64,000 nt of DNA from Victivallales bacterium (lineage in GTDB: Bacteria > Verrucomicrobiota > Lentisphaeria > Victivallales > UBA1829), in the NCBI GenBank assembly GCA_045114455.1, contig JBGUKN010000033.1, forward strand, positions 10,539 through 74,538, given 5' to 3'. Every line of letters begins with the position of its first letter. Position 1 is the first letter of the stretch. Of the stretch, positions 40,229 to 59,773 are shown piece after piece. The translations under genes were made by a program, and so were the position numbers. The notes under the pieces are model-generated. The model did not search any database. It was not told the origin of the DNA and saw only the letters and a program-made list of their open reading frames with translations.

Positions 40229-42082
40229 TCACAGCACGGGGTAGCTGCCGAGGAGCTTCAGTTCTTCGGTGAGCGGCTTCAGCCCGGCGAGCGCGGCGGA
40301 TACGCGCGGAGCGTTCGCGGCGCCCTCGATGTCGATGAAGAACCGGTAGTGCCAGCAGCCGGAGCCGGAGGGACGGCTCTCGATCATGGTCAGCGTGACG
40401 CCGGCGTTCTTGAACGGCTCCAGGCAGTCGTGCAGCGCGCCGAAGCGTTCGCGCGCGGTGAAGCAGATGCAGCATTTCGCGTGCGGCATGAGCGTGTTTT
40501 CCGCGCGGGACAGGATCAGGAAGCGCGTGCGGTTGTCCGGCGTGTCCTCGATGGACCGGTCCAGGATGTTCAGGTGGTACTGCGCGGCGATGTTCTCCCC
40601 GCCGATGACGGCGGCGTTCGGGCTGAGCGCGGCGAATTCGGCGGCGCGCGCGTTGGAGCCCACGCCCACGGTCTCCACGTCCGGGAAATTGCGTTCGAGG
40701 TATTTCCGGCACTGGCCGAGCGACTGGACATGGCTGTAGATGACGCCGATCTTCTCCTTCGGCACGGACGCCATGAGGCAGTGGTGGATGTTCATGGACG
40801 TCTCGGCGTAGATCTTCAGCGGAGTCGAAGCCAGCACGTCCAGCGTGCCGATCACGACGCCCTCCGTGGTGTTCTCCACGGGAACGCAGCCGTATTCACA
40901 CTCGCCGGACTCGACGGAGGCGAAGACGTTCTGGATGCCGGAGCACGGACGGTATTCCGCGCTCTCGGCGAAGACTTTCCGCGCGGCTTCGTGCGTGAAC
41001 GTCCCGGCGGGACCAAGGTACGCCACGCGCGGCTTGGCGGTGGAAACGGAATGCGGCGTGCCGTGGCGCAGGCGTTCGGCGGCGTTCAGGATCAGGCGTT
41101 CGGTTTCCTCGAACCCGATGCAGGCGTCCGTGACGGAAATGCGCGGATCGGGCGGCACGCCGGGCATCAGGTTCTGCTTGCCGGGCAGCAGGCTGCTTTC
41201 GAGCATCAGGCCCGCGATGCCGTCGTTTCCGGCGAGCTTCTGCGCCAGGACGTCCTCGAAAACGATGTGCTGGCGGCCCGGGTCGCGCCGCGAATTGCCG
41301 TGGCTGCAGTCGACCATGAGCGTGCGCGGGATGCCCGCGTTTTCGAGCTTGCGGAGCGCGGCGTCGATGCACGCGGCGTAGTAGTTTTCGCCGGAGATGC
41401 CCCCGCGCAGGACCAGGTGGCAGTACGGATTGCCCGCGCTGCGGATGATTCCGCTGCGGCCGTCGTGCATGATCCCGATGTAGCTGTGCGGCGCGCGGGC
41501 GGCGCAGATGGCGTCCACGGCGATCTGCAGGTTGCCGTCGGTGCTGTTCTTGAACCCGACGGGCATGTCGAGCGAACTGGCGAGCTGGCGATGCGTCTGG
41601 GATTCCGTCGTGCGCGCGCCGATCCCCGCCCACGAAACGAGCTCGGAAAGATAGTTCGCGATCGCCGGGTCGAGCAGTTCGGTTGCAGTGCCGAGGCCGT
41701 ACGCCGACACGTCAAGCAGGAGCTTGCGGGCGAGTTCCAGGCCGCGCGCGATGTCGCTGCCGCCGTCCAGGTCGGGGTCGTACACAAGCCCCTTCCAGCC
41801 AAGCGTGGTGCGCGGCTTCTCGAAATAGCACCGCATCACGATCTTGATGTCGTCGGAGACGCGTTCCGACAGCTTCGCGAGCTTCTCCGCGTATTCCAGC
41901 GCGGCGGGCACATTGTGGATCGAACACGGCCCGGCGATGACCACCAGACGCTTGTCCGTCCGGTCGAAGATATGCCGCAGTTCCGCGCGGTTCCGGGTGA
42001 TGTGCTCCACGATGTCCGCGTTCGGCATAAGTTCGGACGCGAGCTGTTCGGGCGATTTGATCGGCTGTTCTGTCTGGTTCAT
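40229..42082 (-). CDS. Fusion of class I-alpha DAHP synthase with prephenate dehydratase-ACT
   Basis: GPCSIH, YFEKPRT..GWKG, IGARTTESQ, DCSHGNS, TDAC; then YLGPAGTF, PVENTTEG, NRTRF, ESRP; one 617-aa ORF. Confidence 0.92.
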   Translation of the reverse strand: MNQTEQPIKSPEQLASELMPNADIVEHITRNRAELRHIFDRTDKRLVVIAGPCSIHNVPAALEYAEKLAKLSERVSDDIKIVMRCYFEKPRTTLGWKGLVYDPDLDGGSDIARGLELARKLLLDVSAYGLGTATELLDPAIANYLSELVSWAGIGARTTESQTHRQLASSLDMPVGFKNSTDGNLQIAVDAICAARAPHSYIGIMHDGRSGIIRSAGNPYCHLVLRGGISGENYYAACIDAALRKLENAGIPRTLMVDCSHGNSRRDPGRQHIVFEDVLAQKLAGNDGIAGLMLESSLLPGKQNLMPGVPPDPRISVTDACIGFEETERLILNAAERLRHGTPHSVSTAKPRVAYLGPAGTFTHEAARKVFAESAEYRPCSGIQNVFASVESGECEYGCVPVENTTEGVVIGTLDVLASTPLKIYAETSMNIHHCLMASVPKEKIGVIYSHVQSLGQCRKYLERNFPDVETVGVGSNARAAEFAALSPNAAVIGGENIAAQYHLNILDRSIEDTPDNRTRFLILSRAENTLMPHAKCCICFTARERFGALHDCLEPFKNAGVTLTMIESRPSGSGCWHYRFFIDIEGAANAPRVSAALAGLKPLTEELKLLGSYPVL

Positions 42083-42131
42083 GGGATGTCCTTTGGGTTG
42101 GGGAGTATTTTAAGTTTTTGAGAAGTTGTCG

Positions 42132-42175
42132 GAAAAAGAAAAACCGCATTCGGGGGTTCCTGGCCCGGATGCGGC
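42132..42175 (-). terminator. Second attenuator terminator
   Basis: CCGCATCCGGG…CCCGAATGCGG then TTTTTCTTTTT. Confidence 0.8.
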
Positions 42176-42188
42176 TGTGTCTGCTTGG

Positions 42189-42229
42189 AAAAAGAAAACG
42201 GGTCGCACCCTTGCTTGGGCCGGACCCGT
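42189..42229 (-). terminator. First attenuator terminator (3:4)
   Basis: ACGGGTC…GACCCGT then TTTCTTTTT. Confidence 0.8.
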
Positions 42230-42272
42230 CTGTTGTCATGACTTTCGCGTGTACACGTGCAAACGGGCTTCG

Positions 42273-42338
42273 TCAGGCGGTAAATCGCCAGAAGAAGCCG
42301 TAAAATCGAATGCTGTTGTTCACGGAGATCGTTTTCAT
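42273..42338 (-). CDS. Aromatic amino acid leader peptide MKTISVNNSIRFYGFFWRFTA
   Basis: Translated by hand; 4 Phe, 1 Tyr, 1 Trp within 8 codons, upstream of the aro/phe fusion. Confidence 0.85.
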   Translation of the reverse strand: MKTISVNNSIRFYGFFWRFTA

Positions 42339-42347
42339 AATGAAAAT

Positions 42348-42376
42348 ACTATACACCCGTTTCACGCAAATGTCAA
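42348..42376 (-). promoter_or_regulatory. sigma70 promoter TTGACA-N17-TATAGT
   Basis: Near-consensus; predicted start about 42341, 3 nt before the leader AUG. Confidence 0.85.
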
Positions 42377-42557
42377 CCGCCCTTCTCATCTTTTTGCGAA
42401 AAAAACGATTCGTCGCCCGCCGTGTCGTTTCCTGTTGACAATGATGGCCATATGCCTGCGGCGAAAAATGGTATTTATCCTTAATATCCTGCCGATCCCG
42501 CTTGAATTCGGGAAAAAACGGCGTACAGTATTTTTCATCGAACAGAGGAAAAACAAA

Positions 42558-58835: not shown

Positions 58836-59456
58836 TTATTGAGTGATTGGGTTAATGGTGGATATGTGTTCCATAAATGCCTGCGAGTTCCCGCAGACGT
58901 TCAAAATGCGTTCCGCCGCTGCCTCGACTCTGCTGTACAGCGACATCCGAGCGATGGACTCCCCCGCGTCGCCGTAAACCGCCCAGCGGCCGTGTTCCAC
59001 CGGAGTCCGGGGCAGATTCGCCATGAATCCTGCCACGTCCTTCGCCGGATAGCCGAGGAAGATGCCGACCTCGTGCGGCAGGCCGTTTCCCCGCCGGAAA
59101 CGCCGTTGCAGTTCCCGGAGCATGGCGTCGCATCCCGCATCGGTCCGGTAGCCGCAGTGTGCGAGCAGAGCGCGGTTCTCCGGTTCGGAAAGCGTGCGCG
59201 CCATCGTTTCGGGGTGGTAGAAAAGCACCAGCGTGCTGTCGCGTTCGACAAGCAGCTCCAGATAGTCCAGCTCCAGGATGTTCAGGATGTCGCGCCTGTG
59301 CAGACAGACCGGATCGCCGTTGTCGGTTTCCGCCGTGAAACACCGCCTGATGCGGAGCAGTTCGCCGGGCTTCACGCCACGTCGGACCGCCGCGGTCTTC
59401 AGCAGGAGAAAACGCAGGAGGCTTTTCCGATGAATGAAACAGGTTGTCGGTGCCAT
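58836..59456 (-). CDS. DUF3793 family protein
   Basis: GVKPGEL, PHEVGIFLGYP..DV.GF, WAVY; start moved to MAPTTC. Confidence 0.85.
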   Translation of the reverse strand: MAPTTCFIHRKSLLRFLLLKTAAVRRGVKPGELLRIRRCFTAETDNGDPVCLHRRDILNILELDYLELLVERDSTLVLFYHPETMARTLSEPENRALLAHCGYRTDAGCDAMLRELQRRFRRGNGLPHEVGIFLGYPAKDVAGFMANLPRTPVEHGRWAVYGDAGESIARMSLYSRVEAAAERILNVCGNSQAFMEHISTINPITQ

Positions 59457-59519
59457 AACTTTGTTTTGCCTAACTCTTGAAAAACGCCGAATCCATCCGG
59501 TCGGCACATGATACGGGTG

Positions 59520-59723
59520 AAAAAAGACAAGTCCCGGAACCATCCTGCAAATCCGGTTGGAGGACCGGACCCGCACCTGCTTTACCCTACCCGGCATTTT
59601 CGTTCAAATTCTGCCGAAACAGAACTCAAACGGAGCGCCGGACCCTTTTTCACATTCTCCCATTTTGGACAGCGGCACACCTGCACCAGTACGCCGTGAA
59701 TGGTTCCGGGACTTTTGCGTCAT
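59520..59723 (-). ncRNA. Candidate structured leader RNA of unknown class
   Basis: Perfect 15-bp closing stem, central UUCG hairpin, downstream U run, immediately after a consensus promoter. Confidence 0.4.
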
Positions 59724-59729
59724 GGTAAT

Positions 59730-59773
59730 ACTATATCATGCCTTTTTTGAGATGTCAAGTTAGTTTAAACTAA
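59730..59773 (-). promoter_or_regulatory. Promoter TTGACA-N17-TATAGT with adjacent palindrome TTAGTTTAAACTAA
   Basis: -35 at 59753-59758, -10 at 59730-59735, palindrome at 59760-59773. Confidence 0.75.

Follow-up and report, generated by a model that had tools for sequence, protein, structure and literature searches.

The 64-kb stretch of Victivallales DNA analysed here (the window) carries on its reverse strand, directly ahead of a gene that fuses 3-deoxy-D-arabino-heptulosonate 7-phosphate (DAHP) synthase (DAHPS) to prephenate dehydratase (PDT), an element that we read as a ribosome-mediated leader-peptide transcription attenuator acting on this monocistronic gene of a rumen bacterium. Taken as a whole, this reading can be held with good confidence, and the assignment of the element to the leader-peptide attenuators as such is highly likely. 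The element consists of a promoter, a short aromatic-rich open reading frame (ORF), an anti-antiterminator hairpin, a predicted antiterminator and two tandem predicted terminators. It is conserved across Lentisphaerota orthologues, with covariation in all three hairpins, which bears out, in its essentials, the attenuator that a first-pass annotation of the window had proposed.

Architecture and conservation of the leader

The promoter scan revealed a sigma-70-type site that matches the consensus at 11 of 12 positions, with the -35 hexamer TTGACA at 42371–42376 and the -10 hexamer TATAGT at 42348–42353 separated by a 17-nt spacer; it is the sole such site in 1.5 kb. Reading of the sequence placed a leader ORF of 21 codons plus TGA at 42273–42338, encoding the peptide MKTISVNNSIRFYGFFWRFTA, with its ATG at 42338–42336 and its stop codon at 42275–42273. 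Since the ATG lies only 9 nt 3' of the -10 box, no Shine-Dalgarno (SD) sequence is possible for this ORF, and the transcript is predicted to start at or within ~3 nt of the AUG, giving a leaderless or near-leaderless mRNA. This prediction draws on promoter geometry, namely an ATG 6–10 nt after a near-consensus -10 box and no SD in 12 lineages. The ORF contains the regulatory codon run CGA UUU UAC GGC UUC UUC UGG CGA UUU (42282–42308), in which six of the nine codons for R-F-Y-G-F-F-W-R-F specify Phe, Tyr or Trp.

Folding of the whole 256-nt leader gives -74.3 kcal/mol (z -3.05). The anti-antiterminator hairpin P1 (42248–42325; -31.7 kcal/mol, z -3.2, with 0 of 200 shuffles as good) has its 5' arm inside the ORF (42325–42294) and its 3' arm in the stop codon and post-stop region (42271–42248), and it includes the segment 1:2 pairing of GGCUUC (42299–42294) with GAAGCC (42271–42266). 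Segment 2 (seg2; ACGAAGCCCGUUUGCACGUGUA, 42252–42273) is the predicted antiterminator and is complementary to the 5' arms of both downstream hairpins. Upon removal of the ORF arm, the minimum free energy structure from the stop codon to the first terminator 5' arm pairs GCCCGUUUG with CAGACGGGU at -17.2 kcal/mol, which corresponds to the segment 2:3 pairing. Terminator 1 (T1, 42187–42230; -22.1 kcal/mol, z -4.6) has a stem at 42230–42197 followed by the U-rich tail UUCUUUUUCC at 42196–42187, and terminator 2 (T2, 42131–42175; -17.6 kcal/mol, z -2.9) has a stem at 42175–42143 followed by the U-rich tail UUUUCUUUUUCC at 42142–42131. Both are hairpins with a U tract and are predicted to act as intrinsic terminators between the leader ORF and the gene. 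A simple terminator scan missed them, owing to internal loops or a 9-nt apical loop, whereas a scan for hairpins with a U tract detects both. All pairings named in the first-pass annotation can be drawn in the window sequence, and the alternative folds confirm 1:2 and 2:3.

For comparison, upstream DNA was read at 18 genome loci and 17 further contigs (L numbers), which yielded 12 lineages with the device; one representative leader of each was tabulated. The same layout stands ahead of the orthologous fusion in 12 Lentisphaerota lineages with 96–49% protein identity. This recurrence of the whole layout down to 49% identity is what argues most strongly against a product of chance. The -35 hexamer reads TTGACA or TTGACT in close orthologues and TTGAAA, TTGCAA or TTGCAT in distant ones. 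The leader ATG follows a TAnnnT -10 box by 6–10 nt in the 12 lineages, and at a distance of 6–7 nt the ORF often opens with AUGAUG, in agreement with the earlier suggestion of a nearly leaderless start. An in-frame Phe-rich ORF of 18–21 codons is present in 11 of the 12 lineages; besides the window peptide, the leaders read MKTTTVNSFRFFGFFWRFYA (L010), MMKKNNTYSIRFNRLFWRCR (L012), MMKTNTTYSTRFFRLFWLCP (L013), MKMHNMKFWRFFGFDSFRR (L014), MKIYNVTSCRFFSFSFFCD (L015), MTKEMSGTFRFFEYQWFIR (L018), MQKGLAMHRFYWFWRFSR (L060), MMNYMYSFRFFKGFGSFR (L063), MTKRTTNHKYFFSFWRFIV (L066) and MMKTMQKYNFRFTGFYCFMQ (L071). The remaining lineage, represented by a genome-collection contig from a metagenome-assembled genome (MAG; L011) and a Logan read-set assembly (L075), has a 35-codon variant.

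The predicted regulatory segments keep their positions as well. In the 10 lineages checked by eye, the stop codon lies 0–4 nt ahead of the GCCCG that starts seg2, so the earlier claim that the stop codon adjoins this segment holds; variant starts (GCCCC, GCUUG or GCUGU) occur in L014, L063, L066 and L015. The tandem terminators of the first-pass annotation recur in 9 of 12 lineages, and a single one is found in L015 and L063. In L011/L075, where the leader lies ~150–260 nt 5' of the fusion gene, no U tract follows the first, T1-like hairpin, and T2 alone looks functional.

The structures were evaluated on a 15-sequence MAFFT alignment, with slid controls and shuffles for comparison. The RNAalifold consensus showed compensatory changes in 14 of the 23 pairs of T1 and T2. 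On the full alignment it recovered these two hairpins and not P1, because the register of P1 shifts between lineages; P1 was tested as a named structure instead. It has 73% of cells paired, compared to 36–48% in the slid controls, and 15 pairs with compensatory changes (0/500 shuffles). Moreover, a duplex test over nine lineages revealed that the arms of P1, T1 and T2 each pair far better with their cognate than with non-cognate partners (p < 1e-4).

Conservation of the start codon, the frame, the Phe codons and the stop position in 12 lineages also bears on whether the region is instead an RNA that binds a ligand or a protein (riboswitch or T-box-like), or a small RNA (sRNA) gene in its own right, in which case the ORF would be incidental. 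Such an explanation could point to a weak match of the trpB motif (RF04312) across T1 and T2, and to an analogous Pseudomonas element filed as sRNA P15. The RF04312 match was rejected: it scores 21.3 bits against a gathering score of 59, with an E-value of 0.97 in 321 nt, and is a generic two-hairpin, chance-level alignment. No Rfam family reaches its gathering score in the window or the 12 orthologous loci, no leader, T-box or riboswitch family was found in the region, the whole window or 32 related loci, and no Rfam leader (Phe_leader RF01859 or the Trp, His, Leu and Thr leaders) matches the region even at E <= 10. In addition, an attenuated transcript acting in trans would not exclude attenuation. 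We consider a binding RNA or independent sRNA very improbable, and retain the leader-peptide attenuator.

Two features lie next to the promoter. A block, AAAAAGATGAGAAGGGCGG, directly 5' of the -35 box (window 42377–42400; also L001–L009, L016 and L017) is kept in the 96%-identity clade, and the sequence beyond it differs wholly from genome to genome; the block might be an UP element or operator, or the leader and gene may move as a module. In the Oligosphaeraceae contigs L060–L062 (~780–900), the space from the upstream gene to the leader promoter holds a tandem array of 11-nt repeats, in AGATTCTAGAG and GGGCTCTAGGG variants.

A possible shared antiterminator for two terminators

Based on these structures, we propose the following course of events. 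When Phe-tRNA, and probably also Trp-tRNA, is plentiful, the ribosome would reach the stop codon and either mask seg2 or let P1 re-form; T1 would then fold and transcription would stop. When charged tRNA is scarce, the ribosome would stall on the R-F-Y-G-F-F-W-R-F codons and hold the P1 5' arm, upon which seg2 would pair with the T1 5' arm (AT1) and RNA polymerase would read through. As T1 (-22 kcal/mol) is more stable than AT1 (-17 kcal/mol), it would later displace seg2, and the freed seg2 could then pair with the T2 5' arm (AT2), so that one antiterminator would act a second time. Expression of the gene would thus require the ribosome to remain stalled through two successive decisions. The steps under starvation and plenty are modelled on trp and pheA, and for those at T2 we draw solely on folding and conservation. 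The terminator of the E. coli trp leader likewise exceeds its antiterminator in stability.

Both antiterminator pairings are well kept among the lineages. AT1 has 81% of cells paired, compared to 26–57% in slid controls, and shows little covariation, as both of its sides are conserved. AT2 also has 81% of cells paired, compared to 31–49% in slid controls, and only 1 of 500 shuffles reaches the observed percentage; its cognate duplexes are better than non-cognate ones (p = 0.023). Every lineage retains complementarity between seg2 and the T2 5' arm, and in most of them this arm has no better upstream partner. The duplexes of seg2 with the T2 5' arm in L018, L060 and L068 (-17.1 to -17.7 kcal/mol) roughly equal or come near the respective T2 hairpins in stability (-16.5 to -22.8 kcal/mol).

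Ribosome-masked folding, in which transcript prefixes of 15 leaders were folded with a 28-nt footprint masked, is consistent with this scheme. A ribosome whose A site holds an aromatic codon leaves the T1 5' arm to pair with seg2, or with the ORF 3' end in L014, L018, L066 and L068. If T1 formation is then permitted, seg2 becomes the partner of the T2 5' arm in 15 of 15 leaders. The pairing of the T2 5' arm with seg2 is mostly absent when no ribosome is present or when the ribosome sits on the stop codon, and a ribosome masked at the stop codon leaves T1 and T2 free. Lineages with a single terminator show the same behaviour. In L014 and L066, T1 and T2 would each be served by a separate part of the region, the two parts lying side by side without overlap. 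Since seg2 is complementary to the T2 5' arm as well as to that of T1 throughout the lineages, one antiterminator may well serve both terminators; we put the chance that seg2 relieves both at about even.

For the relief of T2, the first-pass annotation had suggested a relay, in which TCCGGCCC (42224–42217), freed in the antiterminated state, could pair with GGGCCAGGA (42166–42158). More generally, either the freed inner 5' strand of T1, UCCGGCCC, or the T1 3' arm GGGUGCG might pair with T2. Both pairings can be drawn in the window (-15.0 and -13.2 kcal/mol), and the T1 3' arm also forms a duplex with the T2 5' arm in L010 (-11.4 kcal/mol), but neither is conserved. The former has 62% of cells paired and no covariation, with a shuffle z of about 0, and the observed percentage of the UCCGGCCC:GGGCCAGGA pairing is reached by 27 of 500 shuffles; the latter has 56% of cells paired, a level that 481 of 500 shuffles reach, again with z about 0. 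For both relay pairings, cognate duplexes are no better than non-cognate ones in the duplex test. A relay is therefore quite improbable, and the better-kept pairing of seg2 with the T2 5' arm takes its place in our scheme.

It is also conceivable that T2 is not regulated at all. In this explanation the element is a plain Phe-only attenuator with T1 as the sole regulated terminator, T2 is an unregulated, partly leaky back-up that does no more than lower basal expression, and the codons for Trp and Tyr have an incidental or structural role. Two lineages indeed manage with one terminator, and the per-lineage shuffle support for the pairing of seg2 with the T2 5' arm is weak. On the other hand, the T2 5' arm is unusually conserved (CGCAUYCCGGG) over 50% protein divergence, its complementarity to seg2 far exceeds the slid controls, and masked folding pairs the two in all leaders; in addition, an unregulated, efficient T2 would cap induction. 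The codon usage discussed below also bears on this explanation, which on balance we regard as rather unlikely.

Several points weigh against the attenuator with a shared antiterminator that we favour. The 35-codon ORF of L011/L075 does not fit the masked-folding model, and the most divergent fusion (L064/L065, 48% identity) has no Phe-rich leaderless ORF; its upstream region (~790–990) contains a promoter-like site and a structured 5' region, with no clear terminator. Three lineages are without Trp and two have a single terminator, and as UGG sits mostly in the apical stem of P1, conservation of the Trp codon could be structural. The support for AT1 and AT2 is mostly conserved complementarity and not compensatory change. 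Shuffling within single lineages gives both pairings modest z-scores (on average -1.56 for AT1 and -1.24 for AT2), for which reason these are not claimed as independent proof. Moreover, AT1 and AT2 use the same GCCCG core in the window and cannot coexist, so a hand-over after T1 has displaced seg2 is implied; this would require a specific order of events, which thermodynamic folding is unable to prove. Finally, we infer every functional step from sequence.

Amino acids probably sensed and the rare CGA-UUU pair

The codon shares of the 12 leader peptides were compared to background frequencies from the fusion protein. Phe makes up 20% of codons against a background of 2.6% (p 2e-29) and occurs in 12 of 12 lineages, and Trp makes up 4.0% against 0.5% (p 5e-7) and occurs in 9 of 12, each an 8-fold enrichment. 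Tyr reaches only 5.2% against 2.9% (1.8-fold, p 0.03); it occurs in 11 of 12 lineages at positions that are not conserved, and in the last 12 codons of only 6 of 12. In the one precedent put to the test, the F-Y-F leader aroR before aroF of Corynebacterium glutamicum responds to Phe and shows no response to Tyr (PMC11802643). In view of the enrichment pattern, the position of UGG in the stem and the aroR precedent, we take Phe to be the amino acid that the element senses, with a probable second input from Trp and an unproven one from Tyr. That Phe is the main signal is quite likely; for Trp being sensed as well the chances seem evenly balanced, and for Tyr they are low.

The earlier proposal that the leader reads Phe, Tyr and Trp together accordingly survives in part. 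Phe is universal and dominant and the case for Trp is partial, given its absence from three lineages and the place of its codon in the stem, whereas Tyr is hardly enriched and unfixed in position; furthermore, the fusion includes the Phe-specific PDT. As a general theme the three-input idea fares better, as shown by the leaders of unfused DAHPS genes described below. The same observations enter into the Phe-only alternative: Phe alone is enriched in every lineage, the fused PDT is Phe-specific, and the Tyr codon of aroR gave no Tyr response, but the 8-fold enrichment of Trp argues against it.

Further analysis of the codons revealed the pair CGA-UUU in all 11 representative leaders tabulated, and twice in the window leader (42308–42303 and 42287–42282). 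None of the 40 Arg codons in the fusion gene of the window is CGA, and none of its 16 Phe codons is UUU; in ten other fusion genes, CGA makes up 2.1% of Arg codons and UUU 31% of Phe codons. By contrast, 15 of 24 Arg codons in the leaders are CGA, as counted by hand from the codon listing. Retention of CGA-UUU in leaders despite its rarity in genes indicates selection at synonymous sites, and the pair, at the main stall site, probably acts as a sensitiser through slow decoding. According to published reports, rare CUA codons make the leu leader of Salmonella more sensitive, and in yeast CGA, read by I:A wobble, hampers the decoding of the codon that follows it.

The conserved core extends beyond the Lentisphaerota. 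In-frame UGG-CGA-UUU (W-R-F; window 42290–42282) is common to the Lentisphaerota leaders and to a second, Tyr-rich leader ORF of Pseudomonas-like genomes (L020–L059; Pseudomonas, Halopseudomonas, Stutzerimonas and Endozoicomonas), which lies 155–290 nt 5' of DAHPS. The genes of these genomes use CGA and UUU at 2% and 4% of the respective codon families, and the neighbouring Arg codons are CGC or CGT. Across 66 kb of upstream sequence there are 29 copies of the 9-mer TGGCGATTT, where 0.25 would be expected, and all of them are in frame as W-R-F.

Such conservation might also reflect a sequence-specific ribosome arrest at the W-R-F/CGA-UUU core, either by the nascent peptide or by metabolite sensing as in TnaC or SpeFL, instead of sensing of tRNA charging. 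UGG-CGA-UUU is kept at the nucleotide level in the DAHPS leaders of two phyla despite its rare codons, and R-F recurs in a third leader family (RFQFWFGYW), both of which would suit an arrest motif. Conservation at synonymous sites, however, points to decoding or RNA and not to the peptide, the rest of which is not conserved. Moreover, a biosynthetic gene that senses a free amino acid would require the opposite logic, and the classic alternative-hairpin layout is complete without an arrest. An arrest motif thus appears distinctly unlikely, and stalling for want of charged tRNA remains our preferred explanation of the codon run.

The locus and comparison with known systems

The regulated gene (40229–42082, reverse strand) encodes a 617-residue protein with type I DAHPS, PDT and ACT domains (PF00793, PF00800 and PF01842). 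Its SD sequence AAGGA (42093–42089) stands 6 nt ahead of the ATG (42082). After its stop codon come a hairpin and a fresh promoter that belongs to an alpha-galactosidase gene, which indicates that the fusion gene is monocistronic. Full-length relatives of the fusion were found only in Lentisphaeria, Victivallales and Oligosphaeraceae genomes assembled from rumen or gut metagenomes, and in a collection of 5.8 billion proteins the DAHPS-PDT fusion forms just 17 clusters at 95–48% identity. The host group, Lentisphaerota/Victivallales, belongs to the Planctomycetes-Verrucomicrobia-Chlamydiae (PVC) superphylum, and the organism is known only as MAGs.

No second attenuator of this type emerged when the 64-kb window was scanned for other leaderless short ORFs biased in amino-acid content. 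At 59455–59760 on the reverse strand, a second near-consensus promoter TTGACA-N17-TATAGT (59756–59728) is followed by a ~270-nt leader with two hairpin and U-tract elements, ahead of a DUF3793 gene (ATG 59456) and a flavodoxin gene. This leader matches no Rfam family and may be another cis-regulatory leader.

Through its DAHPS half, the query likewise retrieved unfused DAHPS genes of other phyla (L019–L059 and L077–L156), whose upstream DNA was inspected over as much as 450 nt. Of the 113 loci that offer at least 200 nt of upstream sequence, 31 (27%) have on the sense strand a short ORF in which 9 codons include 5 or more aromatic residues; as controls, the antisense strand gave 2 such ORFs and the gene interior none. 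F, Y and W occur together in 30 of the 31. These ORFs include a soil-metagenome family, MRSxRFQFWFGYWHAVNAASGPRLL (L126, L134, L137–L143 and L152), the Armatimonadota peptide MINSSAKFYFYYFWFPQTGQAFAE (L049) and leaders of Myxococcota/Spirochaetaceae (L025, L036 and L052). In the examples read (L023, L025, L031, L042, L049 and the soil-metagenome family) the aromatic ORF is followed by a terminator. In the Desulfonema MAG L023, ~60–190 nt 5' of DAHPS, an aromatic leader containing NYFFFWYYFYGSG precedes two tandem hairpin and U-tract terminators, so the two-terminator layout is not unique to the Lentisphaerota.

The Rfam family "Pseudomonas sRNA P15" (RF00627), matched at L020, L026, L033, L035, L057 and L059 (e.g. 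L035 1105–1226), lies 250–400 nt 5' of the DAHPS gene and in Pseudomonas-like genomes corresponds to the first leader ORF with its terminator. As the match runs from the aromatic codon run Y-F-Y-G-Y-W-F-S to the terminator, P15 looks like a leader-peptide attenuator and not a free-standing sRNA. Altogether, we tentatively suggest that type-I-alpha DAHPS genes of many phyla might carry a largely undescribed super-family of mixed Phe/Tyr/Trp attenuators, with one branch in the Lentisphaerota element and another, misfiled, in the P15 "sRNA". CGA-UUU might then be an invariant inhibitory sensor core in at least two phyla, in which I:A wobble in the P site slows the wobble-read UUU and tunes the sensitivity to Phe-tRNA, and the reuse of the Lentisphaerota antiterminator at two terminators might amount to a kinetic-proofreading check of lasting starvation.

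Since mixed F/Y/W leaders precede other DAHPS genes, the novelty in kind of the present element is lowered. The element would extend classic ribosome-stalling attenuation to the PVC superphylum, where none was found in the literature searched; the first-pass annotation had likewise known of no description there, of a kind that is itself well known. Our searches, of incomplete coverage, found neither attenuation described in Lentisphaerae nor a leader peptide with tandem terminators; the aroF/aroR case of C. glutamicum was all that came up, also for aroF/aroG/aroH leaders and for leader peptides of Pseudomonas DAHPS genes. The element points to probable control of a fused first-step and Phe-branch enzyme in uncultured rumen bacteria. 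For the study and engineering of attenuators, the two terminators apparently answered by one segment, and the rare CGA-UUU kept at synonymous sites across phyla, are of interest. The comparative by-product, aromatic leader ORFs before over a quarter of the unfused DAHPS genes and a leader-like Rfam "sRNA", may outweigh the single locus in use.

Among known systems, the E. coli pheA (pheL; Phe_leader RF01859) and trp attenuators share with the window element a short ORF with clustered codons for the end product, mutually exclusive 1:2, 2:3 and 3:4 hairpins, a stop codon adjoining segment 2 and an intrinsic terminator before a biosynthetic gene. They differ in that the window element has no sequence or covariance model (CM) similarity to them, is predicted to start leaderless without an SD and ends in two tandem terminators; its codons are mixed Phe/Trp(/Tyr) instead of seven Phe, its target is the DAHPS-PDT fusion and its host belongs to the Lentisphaerota. 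The P15 element resembles it in its position 5' of a type-I-alpha DAHPS gene and in the course from aromatic codons to terminator, but it is filed as an sRNA, gives no CM match to the window and has two tandem leader ORFs instead of two terminators after one. The trpB motif (RF04312; PMC11109978) also has two hairpins, the second a terminator, in 5' untranslated regions of amino-acid genes, but the family comes from Firmicutes and Fusobacteria.

With regard to the start of translation, the leaderless poly-Cys short-ORF attenuators of mycobacteria (doi 10.1101/834739) resemble what is predicted for the window leader: they sense the supply of one amino acid with a short ORF that opens at a leaderless 5' AUG, in a different host and for a different amino acid. 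The ilvB leader peptide of C. glutamicum is reported to be made without a ribosome-binding site (Morbach et al. 2000, cited in PMC4046766). The closest functional precedent is aroR-aroF of C. glutamicum, an actinomycetote, in which a leader-peptide attenuator with aromatic codons lies directly before DAHP synthase, the first enzyme of the common pathway, and responds to Phe limitation (Neshat et al. 2014; PMC11802643, PMC4046766). Like the window leader it has more than one kind of aromatic codon, but its F-Y-F run has no Trp codon, and it is not known to have a second terminator. Overall, the mechanism is of a known kind, and what is new lies in the phylum, the DAHPS-PDT fusion as target, the two-terminator design with an apparently shared antiterminator, and the conserved CGA-UUU pair.

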